45,637 nt of DNA from Christensenella sp. UBA3798. Lineage in GTDB: Bacteria; Bacillota; Clostridia; Christensenellales; CAG-1252. The stretch is from the NCBI GenBank assembly GCA_002368735.1, contig DFEQ01000006.1, positions 1 to 45,637 of the forward strand, given 5' to 3'. Under the pieces are notes generated by a model that saw only the letters and a program-made list of their open reading frames with translations, searched no databases and was not told the origin of the DNA. Of this stretch, positions 1,142-25,400 are shown piece by piece (within the stretch, counting starts at the first letter, position 1; each line of letters starts with the position of its first letter). The translations under genes and the position numbers were made by a program.

Positions 1142-1155
1142 CGCGTTTACGATAA

Positions 1156-1191
1156 GGGGCTCTCTTCCGAGCGAAGGGGGCCCCTTTTTTT
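1156..1191 (+). terminator. Strong rho-independent terminator after the small lipoprotein gene
   Basis: GGGGCTCTCTTC (1156-1167) pairs with GAAGGGGGCCCC (1173-1184), 12 bp including 2 G-U pairs, around the loop CGAGC. T7 follows at 1185-1191. It starts 15 nt after the stop codon. Confidence 0.8.
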
Positions 1192-1248
1192 ATTTATGTT
1201 TACGCCTATAGGGGCGCATGGAAAATTTATAAGAAAACTTAATAAATA

Positions 1249-1277
1249 TTGACTTCTTCGTGCGTACGCATTAGAAT
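1249..1277 (+). promoter_or_regulatory. Sigma-70/SigA-type promoter of the giant-gene operon
   Basis: TTGACT (1249-1254), a 17-nt spacer, then TAGAAT (1272-1277). An A/T-rich UP-like stretch (ATAAGAAAACTTAATAAATA) lies immediately upstream. The predicted 5' UTR is roughly 55 nt. Confidence 0.6.
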
Positions 1278-1329
1278 ATACCTGTGTTTTTACCTGCGCG
1301 CTATATACGCGTGAGAAAGATGCGGTCTT

Positions 1330-1335
1330 GGAGGA
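1330..1335 (+). promoter_or_regulatory. Shine-Dalgarno site for the giant ORF
   Basis: GGAGGA at 1330-1335, then ATT, then ATG at 1339. Confidence 0.6.
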
Positions 1336-1338
1336 ATT

Positions 1339-1416
1339 ATGACAAAAAATCTTCACACGAAAATTCTGCTTATACTACTGCTTTGCTTCGTGGTCGTGCT
1401 CGTCGCCTTTGCCTGT
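1339..1416 (+). other. Lipoprotein-type signal peptide with AFAC lipobox (Cys26)
   Basis: Basic n-region (K3, H6, K8), a 15-residue hydrophobic core, then V-A-F-A-C with TGT at 1414-1416. This fits the permissive PROSITE-style lipobox pattern. The same AFAC, and the same 11-mer GCCTTTGCCTG, are found in the gene at 299. Confidence 0.6.
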
Positions 1417-4400
1417 GCGCCGAAGTCGTCCACGATCCTCACCGATCCCGATCCGTCGGGAGGGGGAGGCTCCGGCACGTCGGAGACGCGTATAGACGTT
1501 ACGGGAGGTGAGAAGTCGGATTCTTCGGTATCCGAGTTCTTTACATATCTCAAAAAAGCGCTTGCCGTAGACGACGCGAGCGACGCAGTGGCGTTTAAGT
1601 TCGTGACCGAGGACATGACCGTAGTGAAGAGCGAGAAGTCCGTCGATCAGAACGGCAATGAAGTATCCACCCCCAAGACCTTCGATATGTACGCCGAACT
1701 CGCCTGCAAATATGACCGCAGGGACGACTCCAATACCGAATTGCTCTTTGAGCTGCATTCTTCTCTTACGCGCGAGCTCGTGTTTGGCTTCTATTACTAT
1801 ACGGGCGTATTTTACTTGAATATCCCCAACGATGAGGGCGGTGCCGCTACCATCTATATGGACGAGTTCAGCCTGGACGACGTCGTGACCATCCTCGCTA
1901 GCTCGGGCGCCACGGTGTCGGATATCTATAGCGCCGTGATGACCGCCAACGTGCCGATGATCGACGTGAGCGCTATCATCTCGTCTATGCTCAGCGCCGC
2001 GGTCAAGGAGGTCACCAAGACCGAGAAGGATGGCGCCACGCAAATCGTCTTGAAGACCGATTTCAACGCTTCGATCAATGCCTTGCTTGATAAACTCAAA
2101 AGTTTTGACCGAGCCTTGAAGGAGCTCAATATTCGCAGTGCTCTGGAGACCGTGTTCGGCATGTCCTTCACCTCTCTCGTCAATTACAAGTTTGACCAGT
2201 TCACCTGCGACGTGACTTTGAACATCCTGGACGGCAAACTCCTCAGCGTACAGCCCACCCTCGGCTACGGCGGGAAGTTTGCTATGGACCTCTTGATAGA
2301 CAACGTCTACTACGGCGACGACACCAACGCGGTGGGGACCATCGCCTTCCCCGAATTTAACGATTACAGGAAGTTCGGCGTGACCAACCTCGAATTCACC
2401 ATGCACCTCGACCTGGAGAACGCATCGGAAAAGAGCGTTACGATGGATAGCCTGCTCGGCGGCTTCTTCCGCGAGTACTTCGGGCTGACCTCCATGGGCG
2501 CTTTCGGCGAGAGGGTGCTCACTCTCGGCAAGGGCACCATCGGGCTCAACCTCGACGTCAACGCCGAGATCGATTGGAACAAGAACGAAAGGAATTACAT
2601 AGAGATCGAGGTCTTCGAAAGGCTCACTTCGGGCGACAAGCGCCTCGGCACTATCTACTACGTGGGCTCCAAGAGTGCCTTGTACGTGGACTTCTCCGAG
2701 TGCAAACTGCCTAAGTTCGTCTACGAAGGATTGAACCTCGCATCCGTCATCAAACGTTTCGTCGTGGAGACAGTCTCCTCCATGCTCGGCACCGCGGAGG
2801 AAAGCAGCGCCGCGGGCGAAGAGATGCGCGAGGTCATCATCGAGGCGTTTGCTCCGGGCGGCAGTTACCAAGACGCGCTTTCCGCCATCGTGAGAAACGG
2901 CACCTACGAAACAGTCGCCGAAGCAGGCGACGGCGAATACGTCGATCTCACGCTGGACGTCGTCGCTTTGATAAAAAAGCTCGCCAATGCCGTGGCGAAC
3001 AATCTCGAAATGCGCCCCGAGGGCAAGCGTGCGATCGCGCTCACCGTGGATCGTTCGCTCGTTATGGACGTTGTGGGGCACCTTGCCGCGAAGGCAAAGG
3101 AAGGCTTGGATACGGCTGTCAAGAAGCAAACAGAAGCCGCCTCGAACGACGATGAGCTCAAGGAATACGTGTCTACCATCTCCACGCTCGAAGCGGAGAA
3201 ATCTTCGCAAGAAGAAGCGCTCCGAGCCGCTCGCTTGGAGCTGGAAAACGCGAGCAACATGGCGGCGGAGAGAAGGGCGCAGGCGAAGATCGACAACATC
3301 GAAAACGTCCTGCTTCCCAATATCAACATGCAGCTGGAGTATTATCAAAAGCTTTATGACGAGCGCATACAGGCTTTCTCCTCCGACGTGGACGCCGCAC
3401 GCAATAACTTCTATATCTTCGCCTCTCTCTACGACGGGCTAAAGGATAAGTCTTTGACGAGCGGCGACGTCGCTATCCGGAGTATCCGCGTCGAACTGGG
3501 GCTCCTCTCGGTCGGATACGGCATCTACGCCGACGTGGACGTCAAGCTCGCGGAAGACACCCATCTGAAACTGTCGGTGGACCAAGTCTCCATCGGCTAC
3601 GCGCCCGTATTCAACGTGCCCAAGGAGAATTTCGACCCACAAGGCTATTCCACCTTGGAGGAGTTCTCCTCCGTTTCCCTGTCCGCCACCATCGCCCTCG
3701 CGGGTGACAGCGGCTCGCTGAAGGAGCTGAACCTCGGCGACGCGCTCGGCGGCATGATCGGCGAGCTGACCTGCCTCCTCGGCGTAAAGACGGCGAATGA
3801 CGTCGCGCTGTCGGGCGGGATGGATATCAAGGTGGACGCCAACTTGAACTTTGACCCCATCAGCATCTCCGACTATCTGAACGGCGACAACACCAAGCTC
3901 AAACTGAACTCTATCGATCTGGCCGTCAACGTGTACAAGCGTCCCAACGCCACCACCCCCGCCTTGACCGAAGCCAACCGTATGCTCAGCGTGTGGTATT
4001 CGGGCGAGGAGGGCGCTATCTTTGTGGATGCGACGGGCGTATCCATCAGCGATGACGGTGCGACCATCCCCCGCTTTATGTACCGTATGCGCCTCGAAGA
4101 CCTCTTTGCGGGCTCGATCGCCGCGGAGAGCGATATTCCCGCGACCCTTCCCGCCGCCGCTTCGAGCGATTTGTCTATGGAGCAGATCATGGAAGTGGTG
4201 GGCGGAATGTTCGGCGGACTGTACCTCGGCGACGAGATATCGGTCCTGCTTGCGGATAAGCTCATCGCCACCACCCTTTCCATGGTGATGAACGGCAAGA
4301 ATTCGGACAGCGTCATCGACCTCGACTCCTCCAGCAAGGTGTATATCCGCACCGAAGGCGGGCTGGAGATCGGCGCGCATATCGGCTTTGACACCAAGAC

Positions 4401-7400
4401 GTCTGAGGATACCGTCGGATACGTTGACCCCTATATCGAACTGCACGTCGGCGACATCTCCGCCTCGCTCGTCAGGAGGGATATCATTCCCGAAAACGTC
4501 CTCGTGGGCGCCAAGAAGACCTATCCCGACATCACCGAGTTCGACACCGTCTATACGCAGTTTGAGATAGACCTCGGCTACCGCTTTATCAACAACGATT
4601 ACGACTTTACCGACCTCATGGAGGCTTTGTCCGATATGCTCGGCGAGTCTTCTGTCGGCAACCTTTTGGCAAATACCGCGCTGAGCCTCAGCGTCAAAGA
4701 GGAGTTGTTCGGTCATTTCCGCGCGCGTATCAGCGCCAATATGGACTTCTCGGACGGCTTTGAGTTCACCGCGAGGATAGAGCTTTTGAAGGATAACGAC
4801 GTCCTTGCGACCCTCTACTACGAGGGGCTGTACCTCTACGTGGATGCCAGCGGTCTGACCCGCCTTGCTTCGGACGGCGGTCTGAGCGGTCTCAATATTC
4901 CCAAATTCCGCATCCGCGTGTCTAAGCTCGAGTGCGGCTGTACCTGTCCCGACTGCTTGAACGAAGCGTCCTGCGACCACGGCACGAAATGTCTGCCCGG
5001 TTGCGGCTGTGACTGCCACGAAAGCGTCTCCGCTGCGGAGGAGATCTCGGCGGGTAGCTTTATCGGTCTGTTGGATCGCATCGATTTGACAGAGGAAGGC
5101 ATCGCCGTCAAACTTGCGCGCGATAGCTTGTCGAGGGTCTTGACGATCCTCAGCTTTGACGAACTGGGCGAAGCCTTGCCCCATCTGACGCCCTCTTTGA
5201 AGGTGAAGCTCGCGGGCGGCATCGGCATCGGGGCTACCATCGCCTTCGACGACGCGGGTGACAACTATATCGACATCGACATCGGCAAGTTCGGCGTCAA
5301 GTTCGGCAAGGAGAGCCTCGGACTCGTCAAGAGCGAATATCGCGACCTCGACTTTACCATCCTCGATAACGTCTCGGCGGAAGTGTCGGGTCGTATGACC
5401 CTGAATATCGATGCGGGCGCGGCGAATGAAGACGCCGCCGTTGCCGCCGTCGTCAAAGCCCTCGTCAAAGAGGTGGGCTTCGGCGTGCAGGTGGAAAGCG
5501 CCCTCAAGTGGGACCTCTCCTTTGACCTCAAGGCGAACGTCGACCTTTCGCAAGTGGACTTCAACGACGATTCCACCTTTGCCAATATGATCCCGGGTGC
5601 GGAGATATACTTTGCGCTCTACAACAATAACGGCGCGTCGCGAAAGCTGATGCTCCTCATGTATTTTGACGGCAGGACCAAGGACGTGAGCGGCGCTACG
5701 CAGCCCACCGTCTATTTGACCGCTCCCTGGCTCGGCGTGGGCAAGGTCGCTTATAAAGTGGATATCAACGCCCTATCGCAAGACGACGTCTCCGCGGCGG
5801 AGACGGAGGGTGTGGGCGCAGCCGATATCCTCGGCAAGTTCGCCGACCTCATCTTGGACGAAGGGGGCATCGGCGTGGTCTTTACGGGCGAACTGCTCGG
5901 CGAAGTGCTCAACCTCTTGGTGCTTGATGAAGATATCGACTTTGCTTCGATGATAGAGCAGGTAAAGCTCGGCATCGGACTCAACGACGGACTCAGCATC
6001 AACCTCGACGCCTTCCTGACCGGCGCCAAACTCTCCGCCGGCATCACGGGGCTCGGCTTCAATATCGGCGAGAGTATCGACCTCGAAGACCTCGTCTTTG
6101 ACACCGACGACCGCGAGACCGAATACGCGACCGTCGCGTCGGGTACCGACATCAAATTCAACAGTATTTCGGCGGGTATCACCGCTACCTTTGATATCAA
6201 GAGCGCAAGCTTTGAGAACTACGACGCCTCCGAGACCATGAAGAGCATCGTGGACCTCTTTGAACTGGAGGAGGAGGTCAGTTCGCTCGTAGAACAGCTC
6301 TCTCTGTACCTTTCTGCCGACCTGCCCGCGCGCGCTAACGACGCGGCTATGCTCTCGGCGGGCAAACTCATCGTGCGCTTTGACTTCAACTTCTTCGATA
6401 CTTTGGAGTTCGTTTTGCACATCACGACGGGGGATGGTGACGAAGTCGCCACCGTCATGTATCACGGCATAAACGACCTCATCAACGGCGAGGAAGACGT
6501 TCTCTATCTCGAATTGCCCATCATCGGCATCCCCAAGACCAAGGTGGTGGGAACGAAGATCTCCTCTTACGTGGCGAGCTTGACCGAGACCGCCGTCGCT
6601 TCTCAGGAGGAACTCACGAAACTCCCGTGCGGTTGCAGTTGCGACGCGTGTTTGGCGGCGGGTACTTGCGGCAAGAGCGCCGGCAGCCTGACCTGCGCCA
6701 TCTCCTGCGATTGCACCTGCCATCTGCCCGACCTCGATTGCGGCTGTATGAACCCCGCCTGTAAGATCGCGGGCAGCTGCTATCACACCGACGAGACTCT
6801 CGGGGAAGAGGTGCCCAACGAAGGTTGCACCTGTCCCATACATAACGGTGTCACCATCATCGACCGCTTGAACGAGATCGTCGATCACGTGGTGCTGGAC
6901 GGCTCCACGGGTCTCATCGGCGTGGTGACTAAGGGCAACGCCCTCGCGACCATTGCTTCCATGCTCTCGTTGAAAATAGTCCTGCCCGAGCTGGTGATGA
7001 GCGCCAAAGTCAACGTGCGCGATCTCGGCGCGGTGGTGGGCATCACGGGCTTCGAGGACGAAGAGGTCACCTTTGACCTCGCGGTGGACGTGGGCGACCT
7101 CTTGATAGAATTCAAGAAGCGCGACCTCATCTCGGGGACGGAGGCGTACCAAGATTGGCGCACCTTGCAGTTCGGCTTTATGCTCGACGCGGACGTCGCC
7201 TTCAAGATGGACGGCACCTACGCGGAGTATCTGACCGACTATATCTCGGAGAACGTTGCGGGCGAATCCATGAAGGTCGTCGTGGGCAACAATACCACCG
7301 AGGACAAGGTGGAAGTCGCGCTCGGATTGGAAGTTGCGGCAAACGTCGCTTTGGACTACGACGATACCGTCAAGAACTTTGTGCATCCCGGGGTGGAACT

Positions 7401-10400
7401 GTGGCTCTCCTTCTATGCCAAGACGGGGGAGGACGAGCTGTACGACAGGACGTCCAGCCTGATCTCCATCTACTATAATTCGAGCGAAGTGACCGACGGC
7501 GCCTCTCACGAAGTGCTCTATTTTGCGGGCGCGGCGTACGGCGCGGAAAGTGCGGTCAAGATAACCGATATCGGCGTGTACGACCTCGTGATGGAGCTCT
7601 TGCTCCCGATGATACCGAGGGCGGGCATCGTTTCCGCGGCGGAAGCGGACGACGCGGAGGCGCAAGCGGTCGGCGGATTGCTCTCGGGCATCCTCGGACT
7701 TACCGTCACGCGCGAAGACGGGCTCTTGATCTCGGCGGACGGCGGCGCTTTGAAACTGGCGCTTTCCTTGCTGAATAAGGAGCTTGGGGATATCTTCCCC
7801 GCGACCGAAGGCGTGCGCGTGGCGTTTGGCGAGGAGGGTCTCAGCGCAAAACTCGTATTCAACGAAGCGTCTATGCTCACCGTAGAGGTCGCCGACGCGG
7901 ATATCTTCTTCAACAAGTCCTTTGTCGAGTTTGAGCCGATGAGGGATAAGATAGCGGGAGAAAACGGCATCACCGTGGGCGCTGCTCCGATGTCTGCCGA
8001 TGACGCATTCCACCTCTCCGGCAAGTTCAGCGTGGAGGCGGAAACGGGCGTGACCGTGGATGAGAGCGGCAACCCCATCGACGAATTCTTCGGCTCTACC
8101 GAAGGCGGCTATTTGGGCGCGTTGAAGTTCCTCTTGCGCTCCGACGCCGAGAATAAAGTCAACTATACCGTGGAAGCGGACGTTTCGGTCTACGGACTGA
8201 AACTCGACGAAATGAAGCTGAATGCCTTTGACCTTCCGTCGGTCATGGCGCTCGTGGGCAAGGCGCTCGCCGGCGTAAAGGCGGAGGCGACCGTCGTGGT
8301 CAGGGATAACAACGCGGACGACGAAGTCATCTTCGCCATCTACTACACCTTTGATGAGATCGACAGTATGTACGTCGTCGTGCCCGCCTTCGATCTGCGC
8401 CTCAGGGTGGAGGAGGTTCTCCCGCTGAAGTCTCTGCTTGCAAGCATCGTGAGCGACAGGGTGGATTCGGGCGAGACCGCCGCTTCCGAGGCGGTGGAAA
8501 GCGCCGCTGTCGGCGGCTTCCAAGCCAAAGATATATTTAAGCTGGTGGACAAGATAGCGCTCTCCAACGAGGCGCTCACCATCGACCTCTCCGAGCAGAT
8601 ACTCTCAAGGTTGCTCCTGATGGAAGGCATCGAGATAACCCTTCCCGAAGTGAGGACCACCCTCACCCTCGGTCAACTTGTCGCCGCGACGGGCGGGGTG
8701 GATCAGGGCTTGTCCGTCAAGGTGATATCCTCCTTGATACCGCAGTTCAATGCGGAGATTCGCTTGGGCGACTTTGACATCACGCTTGAGAAGGGCTCTT
8801 TGGACCTCTTGGCGCCGCACGCCGCGGTCTTCGGCAGGATGGATACCTACTCCACCCTCGACTCGTTGCAGGCGAAAGTGGAGTTCGAAGCGGACCTGTA
8901 TTACGGCTTCGGCGAGAACCAGACCAACTCCGACGGCAACGCGTGGGCGTTTGAGAAGCTCCTCGAAGACATCGACCTCAACTTGAATATCGGCATCATC
9001 GACCAGCTGAAAGGACACTACAAACTCACCGTCAGCGCGACCGCGAACGTGGCGGAAGGGGCGGACAGCCTGTACGGCTTGGAGATATATATCGTGCTCT
9101 ACTCCGTCAGCAAGGACGGCGAGGATAACGACGTTTACGCCAAGCAATTCAGCGTCTATTACGGCAAGGGCGTGCTCGGCTTGAACTTCTACGACCTCCT
9201 CGGCGTAGAGCCCTTCGAGCTTGAGCTTGACCTCGGCTCCATGATATCGGGCGCCGGATCTTCGGCGGAGCAAGAGGACGCGGGCGAAGAGGCGCAAAGC
9301 GTCACCAAGAAGCTCGAGGGCTTTATCTCCGAGCTTTCGGGCATCATCAAACTCTACGTTAAAGAGAAGTCCGCCGTCTTGGAGCTCAGCGGCAACGTTT
9401 TGCACACCGCGCTCGTCGCTCTTGGTTACGACAACTATTTCCCCATCACGGCAGAGGGGGTCACGAACCTCAATACCGCCGCGATGAACGGGCTTACGGA
9501 GGGCGACTACACCGTCGTCTTGACCTACGATGGTCTGACGAGCGAGTCCGAGTCCTTTACCTATCATCACGCCTATCGTCGCGACCTTTACGACCTCAGG
9601 GCGCTCAATCTGACGGGCGGTGACGTCTATGCCATCGGCTATCAGGGCGAGGGCGTCAGCGGCGTATTCTACAGCGAGGCGAAGTGGAGCGACCTCTTCG
9701 ACCTCGATCTGAAGGCGCAGACCATCACCTGGGTCTCTGCGGATAAGCACAGCGAGCTCTTTGAGAGCTTGCCGCTCGGCGAATACGAGATAACCATCAT
9801 CAAGACGGGCGGCAGGGCAAGCGCCGGCTTCAAGATGGAGAAGAGGCTCTCTTCCTATACCTCCAAGGACGGCTTGCACCTGACGGGACGCACAGTTTCC
9901 ATGATAGAGATAAAGAGGGACGGCGTCACCCTCCATACCCTTGTCCCCACCGAGGTCGAGCTCACGCCGGGCAAGGAGCTTATCGGCGATTACTTTGCCA
10001 TCAATGCTTACGGCGGTCTCCTTGATCTGGAGCTCGGCACGGAGGGCATCCTTGCCAAGGTACGCCTCAAGGACGACACCTATCTCAACCTTTCCATCAC
10101 CGACCTCGATATCGATATGTCGGGCGGCACCGTGGATAGGATAGATAAGAACGGCGAGGCAGAGCAGTATACCTCCAATATCCGCTCGCTCTACTTCGAC
10201 TTCTCGGTAGACCTCTCGGTGAATACGAGCAAGGGGTATAAGCTGGATGTCGACGAATCCATCGGCAACCTCCTCGACAACGTGCTCGGCGGCATCTTTG
10301 AGGGACGCGATATCAACTTCTATTCCGAAAAAGACTCCGAACTCACCTACACCCTCGACGTGCAGGCAAACGTCAAGCTTGCGGGCAAAGCCATCGACCT

Positions 10401-13400
10401 TGCCCACAGCGAACTTGCCGTCACCGTGAAAGAGGGCACGAGGGAGATATTGACCGTATACTACGTGGGCACGCAGGGCGCTAACGGCGTTTTGTATATC
10501 GCCATCCCCTATTTTGATTTGAGGCTCAAGGTGGACGAAGTGGACTTCGTCTCCAAGATACGCTCCCTCCTCGGCGAGAACAGCGTTTCTGCGGCAGAGG
10601 AGGACGACGCGGAGAGCGGTCCCTCCGTCACCAAGATGATCGCCTCGATGCTGCTTGGCGTCAACGTGTACGACGCCTATCTCGACACAGCGGTCGAGCA
10701 CGGCGAGAGTCGCTTCTACGGCATGCAGGCGCTCTTTGCCAAGAAGGCTTTGAACGTGCTGTTGGAGCTTGCGGGCTTTAGCGGCTTTACCCTTCCCGAG
10801 CTGGAAGAAGGGGACGAAACCTCCTATCTCAAGCTGTATATCGACAAGGCGGAGGATAAGCTCCTCGAGGCGCGCCTTGCCTTTGACATTTCCAAGGCGA
10901 CCTCTATGACCTTGACCGTCTATCAGCCCAAAGTGCAGCTCAACGGCAAGATGCGTTACGACAATAATCTCGGCACCTTTATGAGTATCAGCGAGGCGGG
11001 CTCCTTGACCTTGGGTCTCTCGGCGAGCTTTATCCTCGACAACGACAAGGATAACAATATCGACGTGGCGTCCATCGTCAATATGCTCGTGGAGGACGCG
11101 CACGCGGATAAACTCATCGTCAAGACGGAGGCGTCCACCGCCATCTATACCTTCAAGGTCTCCTTGAACTTCTCTTTGCAGGGCGTGACCGAGAGCCTCC
11201 TCGGGGAAGAGGGCGGTATGAGCGTCAATCAGATGCTCCGCTCCATGCTCAAGAACCTCTACGCCCACATCACTCTCGACCGCACCCTCGAAGGTGTGGA
11301 CGACAGACTTGTGGAGGCGTATTTCTACAACAGCTGTTTGTACCTCGACCTCTCCTCCATCGGTATGCCCAAGGCGGCTATCCCCATGGATATCTCCGCC
11401 CTCATTCCCGCGGACGAAGAGCCCGCCGCGGCGGAGCAAGAGAGCCCCTTGGTGTGCGGTTGTTTGAACCCCGACTGCATAGCGCACGCCGATAGTCATC
11501 CCGACGCCACCCATCCCTGCCGCAACGGCATCGGCGGGATGTACGACGGATGCGAGTGCCGCTACTGCGACCCCGACCCCGATCCCAAGTTTGTGGAAGC
11601 CTTCAACGTCTTCTACACTTCGCGCGGTATCCTCGCAAAGATGGAGACCGAGCTCTTCGCCGCCACCTTACAGGCGCTCGGCATCAAGGCGACCTTGGAC
11701 GTCAGCCTCAACGCGCGCTTGAGCCTGGACGACGGTTTATCCGCTACGGCGGTCTTCTACGGCGTGGATAAGGACGGCGAGAAGGCGCACACCTCCGTCA
11801 CCCTCTCGGTGGCCAAGCCCACCGTGGTCCTCGGCGGCGTCATCGAAGAGATGATAGAGGATACCTCCGACTACGGCTATCTGAACGACCTCAGAAACGT
11901 CAACGTCGATTTCACGATAGAGATCGACACCGCGCTCAACGGTTCTTCCGTTGCGGGGCGTTACTTGATCGACGGCTTTATCGCAGACCTCTTCCGCTAC
12001 GGAGCGGGCGATAAGCAGTCCGAGCTCCCCGTCAACTTGATGCACGATATCAAGGGCAAGATCAGCATCCACGTAGCCGCCAATATCGACTTTGCGGACG
12101 TCAATCGCTCCGAGATACTCCTTCAGGTGTATCATCGTCGCGAGGGCGAGGCTGCGGAAGAATGGATCACCGTCTTCTACGGCGGAGCATACGACCTCAT
12201 CGTATGCCTCCCCATCGTGGACGAAGCATTCAATATGACCTTTAACGTCAATCTCGCCAAGTTCCTCGGGGACGACACCGCAAAGATGATCCGCGATCTG
12301 CCCACCACCTTGTCCGACCTCATCTATGGGGCGCTGGGTTCGGAGGCAGGCGCCGTGGCGGCGGCGGAAGGGAGCACGCCCGATTCGATGCTCGGTTTGG
12401 CATTCTCCGCTATCCAAAACATCGGCTTCCAAGCGGCGGGCAAGATAACGGTGAATGCGGCGCGCACGGTCGTGGAGGACTTCTCCGAGTATATGCTCGG
12501 CAGCATCGTCACCCTTGGCGATATGCAGTACTTCGAGGTGTTCGCCGACCTTCTCAGCCGTGAGATAGGTCTCAAAGCGGGCATCAAGAATAACGCCGAA
12601 GGGCCCACCAATACCTTCGCGCTTACCTTGAAGGACTATTCCTTCTCGCTGGTGAAGAAGGACCTTGAATTCGATAAGACGCAGTATAATACGCTCGAAG
12701 ACTACGAATTCCTTTACGTCAAGGCGTCGGGCAAGATCGATTACGACCTGCCGGACGGCGTCTACGACATCGGCGGACTCATCAGGAGCATCGCCGAAGG
12801 GGTGGAGATCCCCGTCACCTTCGAGGGCCTCACCGGCGAGTTCGAGGTAGTCGTCCAGATGAATATCTGCGTGGAGGAGCTCAAACGCAGCGAGCTGCGC
12901 GTGGACGTTATCTGGAACGATAACTACGTGCTCCAAGCGTATATGGACGTCCTGCGTCAGGAGATATATATCTCGATGCCGTGGTTCGACGTGCAGAAGT
13001 TCCTGATAAAGGGCGTGGATACCTCCTTCCTCTTTGACCTCTTGCCTTCGGCTAAGGGCGACGAGGTGAGCGAGGCGGCAGGCTCCTTGGGCTTTGACCT
13101 TGCTTCTTCCGCCGCGGCGAAGTACGTGACTTTGCTCGGCAAGGTGGTGGACGGCATCTTGATAACCAACGACGAGTCTTCGAGGGGCTTGACGATGACC
13201 ATCAACAGCAACTTCGTCGAGACCTTGCTCTCCGAATTCGCCTCTTCCTTGAAACTCGAATTACCCATCGCTTTCGATACTTCTTTCATCAGTGTGGAGA
13301 GGAACACGCTGGACTTCACCTTTAACCTCAAGAACCCCTATCACGCCGCGTCCGCAAGCGCGCCCGTAGGGTATATCAAGGGAAAGCTCGCCTTGGAGAA

Positions 13401-16400
13401 TTGCGGCTTTACCAACGTCAATATCCGTCCCGATAATACCCAAAACGTGACGGAATTCACCCCCCTCCTCGACTACGAAGAGGACGACCCGCTGATACTT
13501 GAGAATATCAGCGTGAAGACGGAGCTCTTCTTCGACGCGCACCTCCTTGAGCAGCAGCTCAACATGAACGACCTCATGATGTACATCTTCGGCGACGGCT
13601 TTGACCTCAAGACCGAGAAGGTGGACGCCATCTTCCGCTTGGAAGTGCAGGGCACCTTCAACATTCGTCGTATCGCAAGGAGCGAACTCTTGGTCAATCT
13701 GTATATGAATTCGCCCGATCCCGCTCAGCCCGGCAAGTATATCGAAAGGCTCTTTATCCGCGGCTACTACGTGGGTCTTGACCAGGCGGTTTATATCGAC
13801 GCGCCCCTCCTCGGCTTGTACGGTATCAAGGCTACCGGTCTGAACCTCGAGTCCCTGATAGGCGGCGCTTCCTCGGGCGAAGAGTCGGGCGAGAGCCTGA
13901 CCGAGCTCGACTGTGGCTGCAAGTGCGCTTCGTGCTTGGATGGCGGCAAGTGTTACGGGCTGGTGGACGGCGTATTGACACGCCTCTGCGCCTCCGACTG
14001 CACCTGCTCGCATTGCCAAGTGCCGGGATGCACCTGCCGCAACGCGGTGTGCGTGGCTACCGGCAGTTGCTACGACGAAGGCGGCGTCAAGCGTTGCGCT
14101 TCCGAGTGCGGTTGCCACTTGCTTTCTTGCGGATGCGATAACGAGGAATGCTTCTTTAACCGCGGTTGCGTGGGCGCTATCAAGCATTGCGAAGAAGATT
14201 GTCTGTGCTCTTGCTGCACGGTGCCTTCCTGCCACTGCACAAACGTTGAATGTGTGGAAAACGGCAGTTGCTACCGCGCGGACGGCAGTAAAATATGCGC
14301 TCTCGATTGCGCTTGTTCCTGCTCCGTTTTGAAGTGCGGCTGCTCCGACGTCGATTGTCAGGCGAGGGGTACTTGCTACGTTGACGGATCGCGTACCTGC
14401 GACGGCAAGGAATGCTCTTGCGCCTGCACCGCGCTTTCGGACGGCTGTAACTGCAAGACCTGCGCCGATAAGGGCGGATGCGTCGCCCAGGACGGCTCTG
14501 TCCGTTGCGAGAAAGGCTGCACCTGCGAGCATTGCACCTTGCCGTGCGGTTGCACAGACCCCTACTGCGTGGCGGCGGGCGGCTGTGGCTTGAACGGTAT
14601 GTACTGCACGGATAACTGCACTTGCACCTGCCATGGGATAGCGCCTTGCGATTGCAATAATCCCGAGTGCGTGGAGAAGGGTTGTATCGTTTCTTATAGG
14701 AACGCCTATAAGGTACAAGCGAGCGGCGCCAAGGCTTATTACGACATTGCGCGCAAAGTTTATTACCTCGCGGAGAATGCGGACGTGATCGTGGACGAAG
14801 ATGCCCTCGTCATCGAAACGGCAACCTCCCGACCCAAGGTGGTCGCCATCGACGCCATCCACAGAGAGGGCTGCGACCTTGATAAATGCACCTGCTATAC
14901 CGATACCTATCGGTTCAATTGCTTCTGCAAGGACCCCGTGTGTATCAAGAACGGCAAGTGCGTCAAGTGCTATCGCTTGATAAAGGACGAGAAGGGCAAC
15001 GACAAGGTCATATCCATCTGCTATTGCGATAAGAATTTCGTCAAGAAAATCGAAGGTCTCAAAGCCGCGGAGGTCACTTCCGTCGTGTTTAAGAACGGCG
15101 AAACTCCCGTTGCCACTTTGCCGAGCAAGGCGGAGTGGAGCGCTTATATGACCATTGTGGACGGTCTCGTATCTCTGAACGACGCCAATGACAACATCCT
15201 TGCCCTCGAAGGCTACAAGTGGACGGTGTACGTCGAAACGACCTCGGGTACCTATGACTTTGAGTATAAGCTTGGCAGCGGTCCCGTCACGAACGACTCC
15301 TGCAAGTGCCATTACAACGTGCTCGCCTGCTTCTGCACTGATCCGGAGCATATCCGCAGCGGCGTCTGTCCCGGGGACTGCGAATACTGCAACGGCGATT
15401 GCCACAAGTATCGTAGCGACAAGTACGCAGAGGCGTTCGCACAGATGAAGATAACGCCGGCGGGCATCTCTTTCCGCACGACCAACAGCTTCCTCTCCAC
15501 CATCTTCTACGTCTTCTCGGGCAATACCATCAGCAACGTGGACGTGCCGCGCATCAGCGTGGACTTCGCGCTCAACTATATCACGAGGCGCGCCGTGTTT
15601 GACCTTGAAAACGTCAACCAAAGCAGCGTCAAGAAGGTGGTCTTCCAAGGCAAGCACGAGATCGGCGGTCTGTACGAGTCGCTGACCTTGACCACGGCGG
15701 AGGAGATCGCCTCCTATATGGAGATAGGGGAGGGCACCGTCACCTTCTACGATTCCAACGTCAACCTCGGCGAGCTGAAGGACTACGCCTGGTTCGTCAC
15801 CTTCTACGGCGACCTTGACCAAAATCTCGGCACGGTGGATTACGCGATGTACACGGGCGAAACGCAGGGCTTCCTTTCGCATCTCGCCTTGCGCGCGGAC
15901 GTGGTGGTCGAACAATATAAGGACGGCGCGTACACGGGCGAGGAATCCACCTTCGGCGTGTCCTTCGGAGGCATCGAGCTGACGAGCGGCAAGAGCACCT
16001 TTACCATCCTTGACGCGCAGGGAAGGACTGACCCCGTATCGGGCGATCCTCTCCCCGCCGACTTCGCGACCTATCAGACCTTTGAAAAACTGCAAAAGAT
16101 AACGGTGCAGACCGACCTCCACATCGAGATCCATCCCGAGGATACTAACGTTGAGCTCGGGCCCATGCTCAATACCTTGTTCCCCGGTATCGATACCTTG
16201 ATGCAGATCATCGTGGATACTGCAGATTGGACGGAGAATACCGAGATAACCTTTGCGGTGCAAGTCGCCCTCGACCTCAACGACCTTGAGAAGACCCAGC
16301 TCATGCTCACCGTCACCGAGACGAGAGCCATTGGGGATAAACTGCTCGCCTTTATCTACTACGACGGCGAGGCGGCGACCCCCACCTTATATATCAATCT

Positions 16401-19400
16401 GCCCATCCTCGGCGTGCAGGGCACTTACTTTGAGAACGTCACCATCTTTGACTTCTACACCGAGGCGCAGCCCGCTTTGGATTGCGGTTGCGGCGAGGAC
16501 AAGAAGTGCAAGAACGTGCTGTGTATCGATAACGGCTCCTGCTACGACGAATACGGCGTCAGGATATGCGACGGCGAGACCTGCGGCTGTGACTGCGCCT
16601 ACTTCAGTTGCGGCTGCAACTGCGGCGACTGCGTCAAAGCCGACGCTTGCGACGGAACGAAGTGCGGCGCAGGCTGCACCTGCTCGCACCACAGCGTGGC
16701 GGCGGCGGACGATGAGACGGCTCTCGTGTGCGGTTGCACCCGGGCTGACTGCATCGCTTACGGCAGTTGCGGTCCCGATTGCACCTATGACTGCGACGGC
16801 AGTTGCCACTACGTCACCACCAGCGCCACACCGCTTCTCTGCGGTTGTACCGACCCCATCTGCTTGATGCGCGGCAGCTGCTACGAGGCGTGTAAGAACT
16901 GCAAGAACGGCAGATGCCACGACAAGGAGAACGCCGCCCTCTTATTCCACAGCGGGCTCTCGGTCTCCGATCGTATTTACGGCTATCTGTCGCACGTTAT
17001 CAGCCTGACGGTTTCCGACGCGGCGGGCTTCCAGATAGAGGCGGAACCCTCCTTGATCACCACCCTTCTCGTGGCGCTCGGCAGGGACGTGGATATCAGC
17101 GCTCTGGACGGCGTGGGCTCTATCCTCGTGGGCTTCAAGGTGGATGCCAACAGCGATATCGCCATCAACGCGCAGGTGGATCTCGGCGACACAGGCGCGC
17201 ACCTCAGATTGACGGCGGATAACATTAAGATAGACCTCAATAAGAACCTGCTCGAAGTGCCCTCGACGGAGGTCGTTGGCTCCTTGCAGAACTATACGAG
17301 GATGAACCTCAAGAGCTATGTGAATATCTCGCTCTCGGGCGAACTCAACATCACCACCCAACAGGCGGTCCTCGACCTCGGCAGGACGGTATCCGCCGTC
17401 CTCGGCGCGCAGAGCGAGTTTGAGCTCTCCTTCGAGGATGGTCCCGTCAGCCTGGGCTATACCATCGCGGCGAACGTGTCTTTGGAGTCGGTGGATATCA
17501 CGGGACTTATCGCGGGCAAGACCTTTGACGCCAAGAAGGTGCTGGAAACCGGCGAGGCTCTCGTGGAGATCATCGACCTCAAGCACAATAAGACCTTCCT
17601 CTCCATCTATCTGAAAGACGGCGTCGCCTACGTCGACCTCGGCATCTTGGCGAGTGCGCCGCCCATGAAGATAGACCTTGCGAACCTCATCAAGTTCACC
17701 GAAGAGGACTACGTCAGTACGGCGGAAGGGGAGGAAAAGAAGGACAGCGTCTACGACGTATCCTATACCCTCGACCTTCCCGAAGTGGTCACTATCGGCA
17801 AGATGTACCACTACGTGGGCGGCTCTTCGCCCGAATTCCTCGTGGCTTTGAAGGGCTACGAAGTGACGAGCGCCATCATCGTGAACGATGCGACGGGCGT
17901 CAAGACCACCATTGCGGACAAGGATGCTCTCGCCAAATACTTCACCTTTGAATACGCGGCGAATAACGCCAACCACCGCTACGTCAACACCATCCTCTCG
18001 ATGGCGGCGACCAAGGAGGTCAGGGAGCTTGCCAGGGACGGCGAGAACTACTACACCGTCTATCTCATCACCGAGGGCGGCGTGGCTTCCTTCTCGCTCA
18101 AGGTAGCTACGGCAGACGCATACGTCACGGGCGGCGACCGCACCATGGCGCTTGTGGCGGGTATGCTGGGCAACGTCACCTTCAAGTTTGACGAATTCAT
18201 GGTGGGCTTGAATAAGAACCTGATGAAGATATTGGAGGAATACCTCGGCATCAGCCTCAACGCGCCCGCAGTGGACGCGGCGATGTTCTTCGGCAAGAAG
18301 GACGCGGAGACCGTCTATATCGGCGCGACCATCGGACTGAAGAACGGCGAAGGCAAGGGCGTCGACGTCGACTTCCGCCTCGGCAACTTCAAGATCGGCA
18401 TCGGCAAGGCGTACCTCTTGGACGAACTTGACGTCAATAATGATTTGATGCGCACGCACGTGACCCTCGTGGACGGGCATAACGAGATCGTTGAGGGGGC
18501 ATACAGCGATATCGAGAGCATCGATACCGCCTACGCTTCTCTTACGGCGGAAGTGACTTTTGCCGCTTCGGGCGACGCCTCTGTCCCCGCAGACCGTAAC
18601 AGCAAGATATTCGACCCCGACGGCGCGGTCTTCACCTTTGGCGATACCTTCCGCGACGCCATCGGCAACGTGCTTGTCAACCTCGGCATCGACAAGTCGC
18701 TGAACGGCACCTATCGCGTGACCTTGAAGGGCTACTTGAAGACTCTCGACTTTGAGATGCTGGGTCTTTCCGACATCGAGGCATACCTCAAGGTGGAGGA
18801 GAAGACGGGCGAAAGCACCTACGGCGAGATATTCACCATCTATTACGCCGACAACTATATCTATCTGAACTTCAACCCCGAGCGCTTCCCCTACATGACC
18901 CTTCCGGCGACCTGTATCAGGCTGGATTCCGCATTGGATTACTGGACGGGCAAGGATGAGGAAGTCGAGGTATCCGCCGCGGAGAGCGACCTTTCGATCG
19001 CATCCTTCGTCCGCTTGATAGGCGGGGCAACGGTGGGCAACGGCATCATCGCCTTGCACCTCAGCGAAAACTTCGTGGGCGGCATCCTTGAACTCGTCAG
19101 CCCCGAATTCAACAATATCTCTCTCCTCATCGACGAGACCAACGTCGCGTTGGACGTCATGCAGGGCGAGATATCCTTCGACCTCAAGACGAGCGGCGAA
19201 TTTAAGCCCGCGGACTACGTCATCTACGGCAGGGACAGCTATGCCAAGGCGGAGAAGGTTTCGAACGATGAAGCGTATATCGCGGTGTATAACAGCGGCG
19301 CCTTCAAGGGTATGGAGGGCGACTATCTCCTCTGCGCCGGCGTGGGCGGCGGAGAAGTGGAAATACCCTTCAACGTCAGCGACCTCAAGCGCGAATACCT

Positions 19401-22400
19401 CTTTACCGACGAAAACGTCTGGAACGTGATGCTCACGGTGGAGGACGGTAGGTTCGCCATCCCGTCGGGTAAGTTCGAGGCGGGCTCCTATCACGTCGTA
19501 TTCACGATGACGGACGGCACGAATGTCACGACGAAAGCGGGCGACGCCATCGCGGGCGGTGCATACGTGGAGCTTGTGGGGCTCGTCGCGGCAAACGTCA
19601 CGTCGGTCAAGGTCACCATGAACTATCTGCGCCTGCCCATCGACGCATCCGGCCTCTCCGGGGCGAACGGATCCTTCACCACCCTCACTTCTCTCACCTT
19701 TAAACAGGTGGAGGCTTCCAAGGTGTCCGGTGGCTTGGAGCTTGCCGACTTTGCAAAAGCGGGCGGGGCGAATGCCGTCACTATCAAGAAAGCGGCGGTC
19801 GGTGCCCTCGGCGGTGAGCATTACTACGCTTACTTCTTCGCCGACGGTGCTCTCGCCGTGGAGAAGGCGTGGCTCTCGGTGAGCGATGACACCACGATAG
19901 AGCTCTCGCATATCTCGATGGATAACTTGCGCAAGATCGTCTTCGTGCGCGACTATTCGGATGAAACGGAGGCTCCCGAATTCGATTCCTACGCCATCCT
20001 GTCCGCGACAGACGAGGCTATCTTCCTCGACTACAAGGGCAACGTGTATACCAACTACACCGCGCAGCAGAGCTTTGATATGTCCTTCACCGTTAGGGAC
20101 CTGGTCTTCGCCGTCGCGCAGCCCGACGTCGGTCTGTATCAAAAGAATAAGGAAACCACCTATTCCTATAACTATTCGACGGGCGCCGTAACTGCGACCG
20201 CGGGGCTCGACCTGGCGAATTACGCGAATTGGCAGGAGCAGGTCTTCTATCTGGCGACCTCTCTTGAGATCTCCGCCGACTTCGCCACGACCGGCGAGGA
20301 GCTTGCGGGCGGCTATGAACTCTTCGGCAACGACAGCGTGGGTCTCGGCTCGGTCATCGACCAGGTCATCGGCATCCTCAGAATGCAGGAAGGACTGAAC
20401 GAAGTCATCACCTTGAAGGTGGAGATTAAGATATTCGCGGAGGACCCCTACCTGTCCGAGGCGCTCTTTACCTTCTCCGTCAAGACGACCGATAAGTACG
20501 GCGCTGACCCGCAGACGGTCAATAAGCCCTCCATCACCGTTTACTATAAGGGTATGGGCGAGGGCAATAAGAGCTATCTGTATATCGACGCCTCGCGCTA
20601 CTTCCTCGGCAACTTTAAGGTAGAGGCAGATATCGTCACACCCATCCTCGACCTGTTTGACATCGGCTCGAAAAACGACAACTACTCCTCCCTCGACCAA
20701 GAGGTATTGCTGTGCGGTTGTACAAACCCCGAGTGCGTCCTCTACGGTTGCATCAAGGCGGAGAACGGCAGATACGTCGTGCGTTGTAAGGGTACGGGCT
20801 GCACCTGTAAGCATTGCGTGCTCTCCTGCGGTTGCGTGGATGAAAAGTGCCTTTTGAACGGCGGCTGCTACGACGCGGACGGCGTAAGAATATGCGACGG
20901 CGAGACCTGCTCGTGTGATTGCAGCCTCTTGGAATGCGGCTGTACCAACCCCGGCTGTATCGAGCATAAGAGCTGCTACGATGAGGAAGGCAACTTGATG
21001 TGTTTGGTGTGTAACAGCGTCTATTGCCAGCTTGCGGGTCGCTGCTTGTTCGACGACGATTGCGAATTCAGAGAGCAAGGTTACCGCGACCCCTGTACCT
21101 GCTCGCACTGCCGTTTGAAGTGCGGCTGTACCGACAAAGCCTGTTTGGATAACCACAGCTGTTATCGTGACGGCGTACTCCTTTGCGACGCGAATTGCGA
21201 TTGCGACTGCTCCGATAACGCCGTTATCGTCGAGCCCGAGAAGGAGTCGGTTCCTTTCTCCAAGTATCTGCCCTATATGGACAATATCCTCTCCGCGGTG
21301 CAGATAGGCAATAAGATGAGCACCATCGTCTTGAACCCCAACGTCTTCAATAACATATTGCTGATGCTTGGCTATAAGACCTACCTCTGCGATGAGAACC
21401 TCGCCTATATCCGCGCCGAAGTGCACGCCACGACGGCGGAGGGTATGAAGGATACCTTCATCAAGATAGCCGCTAAGAAGGACGACGTATACGACGTCTC
21501 TGTAAAGCTCACGGGCTTCAAGGCGCAGGCGGTGGTCAAGAAGGACGCTACGCAGTTTGCGAGCTTTACCTCTGCATATAACTTTGCTTCGAGCGTGCCG
21601 AACTATGAAAGCTACCCGCTCGTTGAGGAGATGGAGCTGCACTTCGCCACCACCGTCGATATTTCGCTTTCGGGCGGCACCGAAACTCTGCCCATCGGGC
21701 TCAACGACCTCTTGGGTTCCATGCTCGGCTTGGAGGCGGAAGACGTCGCCACCCTCACGGTGGATAACGGCACGGTGCAGACGGGGCTTGACCTCCGCAT
21801 CCATATGGAGATGTTCCTCAACCTGCAGCACAGCAGGCAGACCGAGCTCCTCCTCGAGATATCGCAGGTCAATAAGGCTACGGGTGCGACCACCTTGTCC
21901 CTCGGCGTATACTATCTCAACGCGGAGGAAACCGCATACGTAACCTTGCCTGTCTTCGGACTGTCGGGTCTAAAGATAACGGGGCTCGACCTCTCCGACA
22001 TCCTTGCCAACGTCTTTGAGATAAGGTTGTGGAGCGATATCCGCAACGGCACGAGAGAGAGTGCTTCGGCGGCGGAAGAGGAGACCTCCATCAAGAACGC
22101 CCTGTGGCAACTCATGGGTATGGACCTCGGCGACGACGAGTCCCTCCCCAACGTGATACTCGACTATATCCGCGCTATCAACGAGAGCGGCGAAGAGTAT
22201 GAAGAAAAGTACGACCATAAAGCCAAGTTCGTGCTCTCTATGGGGAATTCCAAGGCGGGCGTCGGCTTGAACCTCTCCTTCATCATGCTCCTGATGGATA
22301 TGCTCAAGGTGGACCTCCCCTCGCAGCTCGTATCCATCTTTGAGACCTATCCGGGCGGCTTCACCGCCGAGGCGTATTACGACGGTGCAGACAACGCCTC

Positions 22401-25400
22401 CTTGACGGGCTGGTCTATCGGCGCCAATATCTACTTCAAGAAGAACGAGGCATCCGAGCGCGACGAGATCGGCACGAGCGCGGACAATAAAGAGTGGATG
22501 GGCTTGACCCTCAAGATACACGACCTCGAAGCCTTCGTGGGTGAAAATGAGAGTTTGACCCGTTATGCGCGCACCGACGCCGAAAAGAGCGCCGTCATCG
22601 TGATGCCCGACGCCGTGAAAGCGTCGGAAAACGACGCCAAGGCGAACTATAAGTTCACGCCCAAGCGTTACAGAGGCTACGCCAACACTAATTACGATAC
22701 CTATAAGTCTCTCACGCGTTACAGCAATATCATGGAGATAGACGTCCTGAACGTCAACCTCGTGGGCGAGATGGTCTTTGACCTCAAGAATCAGACGGAT
22801 TCCGAGTACAAGTCCAATCAGACCTTGAAGTTCTTCAACGCCTTGATAGAGGAGATGCTCGGCTTGGAAGCGGGCTCCTTCAACGTGGTGCGTCACGTGG
22901 AGAATACCTGGACCTTCACCGTCAACTTGGATCTCAACTTGAACTTTGAGGACTTCTCCAAGACCCAGCTGAAATTCCAGCTCATCATGAACGACGGCAT
23001 CAGTAGCGACCTCACGCTGGCGGCGATCTATTACGACGGCGCCTCCCTTAGCGAGGACGGCGGTAAGCTGTATCTCGACGTGGCGGACCTCGGCCTCATC
23101 AAGGTGCGCGCCACCGGCGTAAACCTCGAGCAGGCGCTCTCGCAGGTCCTCGACGTGGACCTCTCGAGCGGCAACCTCTCTATCTTGAAGGACGCCTTTG
23201 GCGTGCAGTCTCTCGGCGAACTTATCACCAATAAAATAAAGGAGAGCAAGAACGTCACCGCGCAGGAAGAAAACGAGCAAGAAGAGGAGGAAACCGCGGG
23301 CGCGGCGTCCATCGATTACGCCGCCGACCTCAAGATCGTCCTCGAAGCGCTCGCCTTGCAGGGTAGGACGCAGACCCCCTACAAGCTCAGCATGAAGGTC
23401 AACGGCGCCCTCATCGAGCGCTTGGTCGGTGCCTTCGGCTGGGATGAGAACATCGTGGGCAAGGCGATGGAGCGCGTGGGACTCCCTGAGGACTTCTCGG
23501 CGACTATCGGCTTTACGCTTGACGAAGGACTGAAGGATATCGGCGTCGATATCGTCGCCCCCGACACCTTGTCCGGCGGCGGCTCGAGGAGTAACGACAT
23601 CTCGGTCAAGCTGACCACGTTCAAGTACGACTATACCTCTTCGGCGGAGTCGATGTTTGCGGCAAATCAGTTCGACGATTACAGCGCCCTCCCGATGGGC
23701 GGCTCTATCGGACTCGCCAACCACAACGGCGAGAGCTGGGTCGGCATGCTCGTGGAGAGCGTATTGAACGGCTTGTATCCGCCCGCTGCGTCAGTCGATT
23801 CGGGCGGCAATGAGACTTTGACGGCGGACGCCTTACGCGTAAAGCTCACCCATAATACCCACTATACCGACAAGAACGCCGTCCTCGTCACCGATCAAAA
23901 GAGGAATATCGTCATTCAACTCTCGCGTGACGACTCCGAGGGCAAGTTCCCGCACTCTTTGAGGGGCACGGTATTCGACGTTATGACCGACTTTACCGAA
24001 ACCCCCGGTCTTACCGACATCGCTCAGAACGCCGTGGAGATCTACAGCGAAAACTACTTAGCCATCGCCGACCTTTTGAAGAACATCGCACAAATGTTTG
24101 TCGGACACATCGACAGGATATCGGTCTACTACGTGGACGGCAATCTCAAGTTGCGCGTCGGCTTTAAGATCTCCATCTTCGGCTTGTCGTTATTGACTTG
24201 GGACGAGAATGACGGACTGGACTTCACCTTTAACGTCTATCACATGGATATCTCCGATATGATGTCGGGCAAGGCGAAGAAGAGCAAATACGACGAACCC
24301 GATGAGATCAAGAGCGATGGTGACGACGACGAGACCATTACCCTCGAAGATATCGAAGCAGCCAAGGAGCATCCCGTCACCAAGGTGACGCTTAACCTCG
24401 GCTACGGGCACATAGACGATACGACGGGCACGACGATGGAGAAGTCCAAGCAGGACACCGCGGAAGGACTCGCAGGTGAAAATCCCGCGACTGTCAGCAA
24501 CCTGCGCATTGACTTTGACGCGCTCGTGATCAGAGAGCTCACGCAGATGCTCAACTCCGCGGCGCTCAGCCTCGGCAAATCGCATAGTACCGTCGCGTCG
24601 CGCGCAACCTACGGCACCTATCAGATGATGCTCGGCATGATAAAAGACGCCATCAAAGGACTCATCAAAAAGCTCGGCGATAACACCGTGGTCAATGCGC
24701 TCGCCAGCGTAGCGGGTTCGGCTGCGGCGGCGCTTGCCGATAATGTTCTCGGCGACCAGGTCATCCACTTGCTGGCAAAACTCCTCCCCTTCGTGGAACC
24801 CGCCAAGGGCGACAGCTGCTACTTGATGGTGGAATTCGATACCAACAATAAGGGAAGCGGCAAAGTGCTTATCCGTAAAGCCCTCTTCCGCGCCTGCAAC
24901 GCCAAGACGGGCGAGTATTCGCAGATCGTGCTCACCAACGCGGGCATCCGCCTCGGCGTGGTGGACGAAACGCGCGTGACGATAGAGTTCAACGGCAAGA
25001 CCGAGCGCACCTTGACCGACGTCTTCAATGTCGACCTCGACGGCAACGGCGTGGCGGATTATCTGCAAGACCTGCCCAAGGAGGCGTCCGTCTACTATAA
25101 GCCCGGCACCACCAATGCGGACGACAAGCCCGACGACGTCAACATCGTCTGGACGGACAGCACCTTCGTCATCGACCCGACGGGCGGCGTCACCACCCCC
25201 ATCGCGAGACCCAAGGACGGCAGTGATAAGATAGCCACCAGCTACAATATCATCGGCACTATCCTCAATTACAATAAGTACGTGCCGCTCAACGTGCCGT
25301 ACAGCGCAGTGCGCCTTGTCAAATACGCCACGGTCGCGGGCGAGACCACGCCGCTTATCAAGGGCGAGCATATCGAACTGCCCATGCGCATCACCCCCGA

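Follow-up and report, generated by a model that had tools for sequence, protein, structure and literature searches.

Domains of the CXC and pre-SET kinds (MSL2 CXC, tesmin/TSO1 CXC and SUV39 pre-SET, of the Zn3Cys9 type) are eukaryotic, nuclear, DNA-binding elements that occur singly or in pairs. They are compact, at ~35-50 amino acids (aa), and are dominated by CxC spacings of cysteine (Cys). The consensus of the CXC superfamily has been given as CX[C/H]X2-13CX4-7CXCX5-60CX2-4CX1-2CX2-15CXN (PMC3447885). Metallothioneins, including the bacterial SmtA-type (Zn4Cys9His2), are small proteins that lie free in the cytosol and lack strict repeats; they have ~20-30% Cys, CxC spacings, an occasional histidine (His) and few hydrophobic residues. 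By analogy, these two groups appear to be the closest mechanistic counterparts of the element described here, a Cys/His repeat unit of ~33 aa that is arrayed in tandem within a giant protein of Christensenella sp. UBA3798 (contig DFEQ01000006.1, positions 1 to 45,637 of the forward strand). The whole of this 45,637-nt stretch is referred to as the window, and aa numbers are those of the giant protein encoded at 1339-32457 (+). The Cys-dense sites of this protein, whether they hold one unit or several, are termed knots.

The unit shares with domains of the CXC and pre-SET kinds its compactness, the dominance of CxC and a similar order of ligands, and those domains likewise tolerate Cys/His alternation and a variable number of ligands, as in the Zn2Cys7 variant (SET2 pre-SET). 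However, the unit is without the fifth Cys, having C-Y where CXC has C-x-C, is without the terminal C-x-N and shows no hidden Markov model (HMM) similarity to these domains; it also forms a bacterial extracellular tandem array. The knots are close to metallothioneins in composition, a likeness that would make a metal-thiolate cluster a plausible core. Unlike metallothioneins, they are embedded in an exported protein of 10,372 aa, possess a conserved Gly/Tyr scaffold and occupy fixed architectural positions, and the two have no sequence match.

The best functional analogy for the knots is the CXXC-rich surface coat of Giardia. The VSP proteins of Giardia and Entamoeba (PF03302) are, like the giant protein, extracellular Cys-rich surface proteins of anaerobic gut dwellers. 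Metal coordination and/or disulfides underlie their stability and resistance to proteases, and the protease resistance of the Giardia coat is lost with chelators or reductants and regained on metal addition (PMC6341118). These proteins are eukaryotic as opposed to bacterial and employ a CXXC motif at ~12% Cys, whereas the main array is CxC-dominated at ~24% Cys; there is no homology between them and no Pfam VSP match. The disulfide-rich repeats (EGF-like, TNFR CRD, granulin and cyclotide/knottin) resemble the units in being small, tandem and extracellular with a regular Cys spacing. Their Cys are strictly even in number and invariant, whereas those of the knots are often odd in number, vary between orthologues and can be replaced by His.

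The repeat unit and the main array

An earlier note on this DNA had described a tandem array of a ~33-aa Cys repeat, 7.5 units in length, at aa 4192-4449. The translation bears this out, with 61 Cys in 258 aa (23.6%), and an HMM of the unit recovers seven full units and one half unit that start at aa 4192, 4231, 4264, 4298, 4333, 4369/70, 4403 and 4437. The alignment of 17 units from the giant protein gives the consensus CGCxxxxCxxxGxCYxxxGxxxCxxxCxCxCxxxx, and the unit can be written as the pattern C-G-C-x-[C/N/D]-x2-C-x3-G-x-C-Y-x(6-9)-C-x3-C-x-C-x-[C/H]-[C/H] over ~33 aa. The spacing first proposed was slightly off, as five residues rather than four lie between the third and fourth Cys (C-G-C-x4-C-x5-C-x6-9-C-x3-C-x-C-x-[C/H]).

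The canonical unit contains eight Cys. Those at unit positions 1, 3, 8, 14, 23, 27 and 29 are invariant. In a set of 63 near-full units drawn from 11 sequences, Cys, Asn or Asp is found at position 5 (22, 22 and 18 units, respectively), Cys or His at position 31 (40 and 16) and Cys, His or Ser at position 32 (22, 14 and 10). The non-ligand positions G2, G12, Y15 and G19 are conserved too, which suggests that the unit has a defined fold. Within the main array CxC is found 20 times and CxxC five times. The His-containing unit ends that had been listed are all present, some of them in the array (SHC at aa 4224-26, EHC at 4397-99 and CTCH at 4429-32) and others in further knots (CDCH at 1224-27 and KHC at 6491-93). 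Tandem Repeats Finder detected no tandem repeat at the DNA level; therefore, the units are taken to be old and diverged, and not an artefact of assembly or slippage.

The view that this is not a known Cys repeat has withstood comparison with Pfam (E<=10), NCBIfam and PDB sequences, and no confident match to a described Cys-rich family, which the earlier note had named as grounds for refutation, was returned by any of the three. Pfam hmmscan of the array with its flanks and of four other knot regions gave no relevant family at E<=10, and the knots are not members of the Cys-rich Pfam families (EGF, TNFR, granulin, VSP PF03302, tesmin CXC PF03638, pre-SET PF05033, metallothioneins and Fer4). NCBIfam, searched with aa 1-10,000 at E<=0.1, had no match in the knots, and its sole result was a sub-threshold MiiA motif elsewhere. 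Among PDB sequences, phmmer with the array produced a single match, to a cyclotide over 24 residues (E=0.047), which is put down to chance, and the unit profile, run through hmmsearch, brought up no meaningful match at E<=10. Membership of the CXC/pre-SET group was rejected: the regular expression matches no single unit and gives one spurious 80-aa match across three units, while ligand 5 and the CxN are absent from the consensus. On these sequence comparisons, the unit is a genuine, previously undescribed Cys/His repeat and represents a new sequence family of a general class already known, that of Cys-rich structural mini-domains.

Distribution and conservation of the repeat

A HMMER profile of the unit was compared with 1.84 billion representative proteins, and six proteins were found at E<=0.001. 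Each of the six is a fragment from the giant-protein family itself, and those that carry a name are entries of the type ‘hypothetical protein, partial’ from metagenome-assembled genomes (MAGs) of Clostridiales/Clostridia. The scan of GTDB species genomes identified one orthologous locus (L001), in an uncultured Clostridia MAG from run SRR873603. This run is a sheep-rumen metagenome (PMC4158751). The open reading frame (ORF) of L001 is 67% identical to the giant protein over 7,106 aa. Metagenome DNA was also scanned with a degenerate pattern for CGCT[DN]PxCxxxGxC. This resulted in five true loci, spread over four long contigs of JGI metagenomes, 27-57% identical to the giant protein and all members of its family.

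The remaining five of the ten metagenome loci with this pattern were dismissed as chance occurrences, four of them for their in-frame stops (L002, L006, L008 and L011) and L003 as a lone unrelated motif. A word-indexed homologue search with the array and its flanks, and with the upstream module, gave no matches although proteins 65-75% identical are present in the same collection, and this negative does not equate to absence. Since the searches brought up members of the giant family and nothing else, the repeat is judged to be genuine, extremely rare and restricted to that family.

The Cys are far better preserved than the remainder of the protein: 182 of 187 are shared by the window and L001, as opposed to an overall identity of 68%. 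Of the five exceptions, four are isolated residues outside the knots. The fifth lies in a knot (aa 4324, unit u4) and is missing from L001 through a one-residue deletion, which leaves the unit with seven Cys compared with eight. The non-Cys residues of the knots are 64% identical, which is not above the level seen outside the knots. His is conserved at 22 of 25 positions within knots, compared with 34 of 63 outside (p=0.003). The ratio of non-synonymous to synonymous substitution rates (dN/dS) of the main array is 0.16, with a dS of ~1.3. L001, P0001/P0008 and L004 match the window in having 7.5 units in the main array, and L010 has 6.5; the count of 7.5 is kept among orthologues that are 47-72% identical. 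The Cys and His of the knots are under strong purifying selection.

Purifying selection also acts on the giant ORF (dN/dS 0.22 over aa 741-7860). A wrong-frame or artefactual reading of this ORF was ruled out by its 10,372 open codons, its protein-level conservation in several metagenomes and a dN/dS of ~0.2.

Position and possible function of the knots

Through an iterated HMM and alignment, ~17 homologous modules, typically of ~270 aa, have been recognized that make up aa ~380-7265. The module HMM has 17 matches at a domain E <= 0.1, with 13 at E <= 1e-14, and the homology is borne out by a MAFFT alignment of 12 modules. The modules end in the motif ...YYxG...LYVDxPxxGxxxxKxxGxNL, after which the linker is either short and acidic (typically SAAE) or bears Cys knots. 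The junctions that are followed by knots are those at aa 1198, 1744, 3355, 4173, 5038 and 6452. This arrangement supports the view that the knots are confined to linkers between the ~270-aa modules. In the distant family members P0005 and L009, single and simpler knots are located at the equivalent junctions, and for this reason the 7.5-unit array appears to be a junction knot that has undergone tandem expansion in a particular lineage.

It had been suggested that the repeats act as rigid, compact spacers between rod modules. The part concerning spacers stands, since the knots lie in inter-module linkers, but ‘rod’ and ‘rigid’ were not borne out, as the AlphaFold2 models are of low confidence. 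Two units modelled with a 14-row paralogue alignment reached a mean predicted local distance difference test (pLDDT) score of 46, too low for the Cys geometry to be read. The model of one module with two units had a mean pLDDT of 52.8, with the knots below 50. The C-terminal half of the module was predicted to form long beta strands (pLDDT ~80-88). Foldseek found no match in the PDB for the low-confidence module-plus-knot model at E<=0.001.

The acidic S-A-A-E sequence, or a variant such as AAES, is present in almost every inter-module linker (e.g., aa 1480-1495, 3075-3090 and 5870-5880). It is also found directly after several knots (aa 1228-1236 and 5119-5127) and is conserved in orthologues and in distant homologue fragments. 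This motif may be a processing, flexibility or recognition element.

The most likely mechanism, held with about as much confidence as doubt, is that the knots of the giant protein are metal-thiolate structures that serve as stiff, protease-resistant spacers at the junctions. It is proposed that a Cys/His mini-domain of ~33 residues has been tandemly expanded, specifically in one family of giant surface proteins, anchored at the N-terminus, from uncultured Clostridia of the rumen or gut type. Every unit would offer seven to ten thiolate/imidazole ligands, comprising the invariant Cys, position 5 (C/N/D) and positions 31-32 (C/H). These may wrap divalent metal ions, two or three in number and most probably Zn(II), to form compact metal-thiolate knots like those of metallothionein and CXC/pre-SET domains, and a complete disulfide set is thought not to form. 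The knots would be inserted only in inter-module linkers, with the other junctions receiving the short acidic ‘SAAE’ linker, and would function as stiff, protease-resistant spacers in a very long cell-surface fibre within an anoxic, protease-rich habitat. Because insertion is seen only in linkers between modules, a structural role appears to be the most likely one. The repeat, its rarity, the lack of a known-family match, the purifying selection on Cys and His and the placement at junctions are established, and metal binding, its stoichiometry, rigidity and protease protection are inferred; for the roles as rigid spacer and in protease protection, the argument is drawn from position and analogy.

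The earlier note had judged metal binding to be at least as plausible as disulfides, and the pattern of substitution lends indirect weight to that judgement. Across three to five orthologues, the only changes at the Cys columns of the knots are His/Cys exchanges at aa 1227 and 5118, Asn/Cys exchanges at aa 4302 and 6463, and one change in an atypical unit. The exchange at aa 1227 is CDCH versus CSCC and that at aa 5118 is SHH versus SHC, both at the last ligand position of the unit. Those at aa 4302 and 6463 concern unit position 5, and a third Asn/Cys exchange occurs in unit 3 of L010. In addition, the knots are enriched in His 3.4-fold (p=1.5e-6), which places it second among all residues in this respect. 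On account of the His/Cys and Asn/Cys swaps, the positions limited to Cys or His, the odd and shifting parity of the Cys, the enrichment and conservation of His, the scarcity of Cys elsewhere in the protein and the anoxic rumen habitat of the orthologue L001, metal ligands are favoured over disulfides.

The main rival explanation, considered somewhat unlikely, describes the units as disulfide-knotted mini-domains like EGF, granulin or TNFR-type domains, in which most Cys would be oxidised after Sec export to give rigid spacers without metal. The high and regular Cys density, the even number of eight in the canonical unit and the small conserved Gly and Tyr positions typical of knotted mini-domains are in its favour, as is the extracellular location of a protein with a signal-bearing N-terminus. 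Disulfide-forming enzymes are encoded by some clostridia (PMC12453122). Nevertheless, the knots fail the generic criterion of a disulfide knot, an even and invariant Cys complement in each unit. Odd Cys totals occur in five of the nine knots (9, 15, 7, 61, 10, 8, 31, 36 and 7, in order along the protein), including isolated single-unit knots with 9, 7 and 7. Parity shifts between orthologous units, from 8 to 7 or 9 in unit 4 and from 9 to 10 in the knot at aa 1199, and His replaces Cys at homologous columns, with positions 31/32 restricted to Cys or His. The enriched and conserved His, the anoxic rumen and the lack of a match to any disulfide-rich family of Pfam or the PDB are further arguments against it. 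Studies of exported proteomes have shown an even-Cys bias where disulfides are used, and none in the exported proteins of Firmicutes (PMC2823432).

Several points weigh against metal ligation in the knots. The pLDDT of the knots is below 50 in both AlphaFold2 models, with the Cys geometry unreadable. The residue after CGC in unit 2 is His, Ala, Lys or Thr among orthologues, while SHC becomes RDC in unit 1 of L004 and KHC becomes KDC in P0003. Asn, as found at unit position 5, is a poor Zn ligand, and T-[D/N]-P could be a simple Asx-Pro turn. Odd Cys counts are also compatible with one free thiol per knot. Given that some clostridia encode disulfide-forming enzymes, a mixed disulfide/free-thiol structure may also be envisaged.

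If the knots do bind metal, their purpose could be metal handling rather than architecture, with the protein and its 184 knot Cys per molecule serving at the surface, in the manner of a metallothionein, to scavenge Zn, Cu, Cd or Fe or act as a sink for them in acquisition or detoxification. The CxC-rich, Cys/His-dense sequence does resemble metallothionein, and the number of ligands is flexible between orthologues. Such a function is improbable, however. The number and positions of the knots are strictly conserved and tied to module junctions, and so fit architecture better than capacity. The conservation of G2, G12, Y15 and G19 points to a defined fold, and a gene for a metal transporter or regulator is absent from the window, where a small lipoprotein and the second giant ORF are all that is found besides. 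It could also be speculated, as a long shot, that ordered polynuclear metal-thiolate clusters on the surface of this Gram-positive anaerobe carry out metal capture or exchange, or act as a redox-active thiolate wire, in the rumen. At two to three metals per unit, the main array would accommodate ~15-25 metal ions and the entire molecule ~50-70.

It is scarcely credible that the arrays hold redox cofactors (Fe-S clusters or covalent heme) as an extracellular electron conduit, a proposal that has nothing in its favour beyond a high Cys density and an anaerobic host. The motifs CxxCH, CxxCxxC and CxxCxxCxxxCP do not occur in the 10,372 aa, which agrees with the initial statement that the repeat is not a ferredoxin motif, and no cytochrome or ferredoxin family was matched in Pfam or NCBIfam. 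Fe-S clusters assembled in the cytoplasm cannot be exported via Sec, unlike via Tat. As the signal of the giant protein is of the Sec/lipoprotein type and not twin-arginine, export with such a cluster in place would not be possible. Both the heme-c and the Fe-S readings were rejected on the absent motifs and the Sec-type signal.

Should the metal-thiolate spacers prove correct, the unit would be a mini-domain of a new kind that forms clusters, and a rare instance of a Cys-dense, metal-stabilised architecture exposed on a Gram-positive anaerobe, whose lineage otherwise shuns cysteine in exported proteins. It would also provide the first handle on an orphan family of rumen Clostridia surface proteins of >10,000 residues with almost no recognisable domains. 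Surface metal clusters with the speculative roles given above, if real, would make the protein the first ‘metallothionein rod’ outside a bacterial cell and would amount to a new fold for metal clusters. As a disulfide or structural spacer only, the repeat would still be a new domain family worth curating, of local interest. Because it is short, sharply defined and extremely rare, the repeat is a clean family marker and is tractable for expression and metal analysis.

Other knots, domains and neighbouring genes

In addition to the main array, eight further Cys-dense sites are found in the giant protein (Table 1), a number that varies with the grouping of neighbouring sites. The earlier note had counted related knots at seven other places; the presence of such knots is upheld, and the figure of seven is not. 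Cys accounts for 21.6% of the 850 knot residues and 0.22% of the remaining 9,522, a contrast well beyond chance.

Table 1. Coordinates in the window of the giant gene, its signal, the module upstream of the main array, and the knots
Feature	Window position	Strand	Basis
Giant ORF carrying all Cys knots	1339..32457	+	Single stop-free frame, 10,372 aa
Signal / lipobox-like N-terminus MTKNLHTKILLILLLCFVVVLVAFAC	1339..1416	+	Read from translation; kept in orthologue fragment P0006
Single knot, aa 1199-1231, 9 Cys + His (count in orthologue P0008: 10 Cys)	4933..5031	+	After module junction
Two-unit knot, aa 1764-1837, 15 Cys	6628..6849	+	After module junction
Degenerate knot, aa 3373-3410, 7 Cys + 2 conserved His	11455..11568	+	After module junction
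~270-aa repeated module, aa 3897-4191, directly upstream of main array, ending in junction motif ...YYVGLDQAVYIDAPLLGLYGIKATGLNLESL	13027..13911	+	Iterated HMM, MAFFT
Main array, 7.5 tandem Cys/His units, aa 4192-4449	13912..14685	+	Translation, unit HMM
Atypical knot, aa 4512-4566, 10 Cys	14872..15036	+	Cys density
Atypical knot, aa 4655-4692, 8 Cys + 3 conserved His	15301..15414	+	Cys density
Four-unit array, aa 5049-5198, 31 Cys, interrupted by SVAAADDE linker	16483..16932	+	After module junction
Four-unit array, aa 6459-6628, 36 Cys	20713..21222	+	After module junction
Outlying degenerate knot, aa 9073-9106, 7 Cys (L005 counterpart: 9 Cys + His)	28555..28656	+	Cys density

The giant protein had been described as exported, and this agrees with its N-terminus: export is proposed because MTKNLHTKILLILLLCFVVVLVAFAC is lipobox-like and conserved in the orthologue P0006. 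The assignment of this segment as a lipoprotein signal was made by inspection. The LPxTG motif does not occur anywhere in the giant protein.

Towards the opposite end, three Big_4 domains (E=8.7e-24) are located at aa ~9850-9900, or ~30886-31038 of the window, in a Pfam search of the whole protein at E<=0.1. Big_3 matches the same stretch exactly at its gathering cutoff. The Big_4 domains are the only clear Pfam domains within the 10,372 aa, and their position near the C-terminus is consistent with a distal adhesive tip. The sub-threshold NCBIfam match to the MiiA motif-containing surface protein motif lies at aa ~8734-8748 (window ~27538-27582), with E=0.0022 and 17.6 bits against a cutoff of 24. 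Self-BLAST revealed a second repeat system at aa ~8050-9620 (window ~25486-30198), composed of segments of ~105-290 aa that are 23-30% identical to one another. This C-terminal system is unrelated to the ~270-aa junction modules and has almost no Cys knots.

The minus strand over the giant gene contains, at 1378-32985, a chain of very long antisense open frames of up to 1,675 codons (e.g., 16945-21969), and the second giant ORF is shadowed by similar frames. These are taken to be by-products of sense-frame codon bias rather than genes.

The second giant ORF starts 76 nt after the first and runs from 32533 to 45636 (+) and past the end of the window, encoding at least 4,368 aa. It had no Pfam match at E<=0.01, and contains an N-terminal transmembrane segment MTVTQRRTKWKAGLIIALAAIILLTLLAVS, repeated ‘VGGxVG’-type motifs and 27 Cys. 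The window thus holds a pair of orphan genes for giant surface proteins, one behind the other. Immediately upstream of the first, at 299-1141 (+), is a small ORF of 280 aa counted from MKKTICTLLILLLVMGACVGAFAC. It has no Pfam match and no exact copy in the contig index, and has at its N-terminus a lipobox-like sequence similar to the giant protein's (…GAFAC as against …VAFAC).

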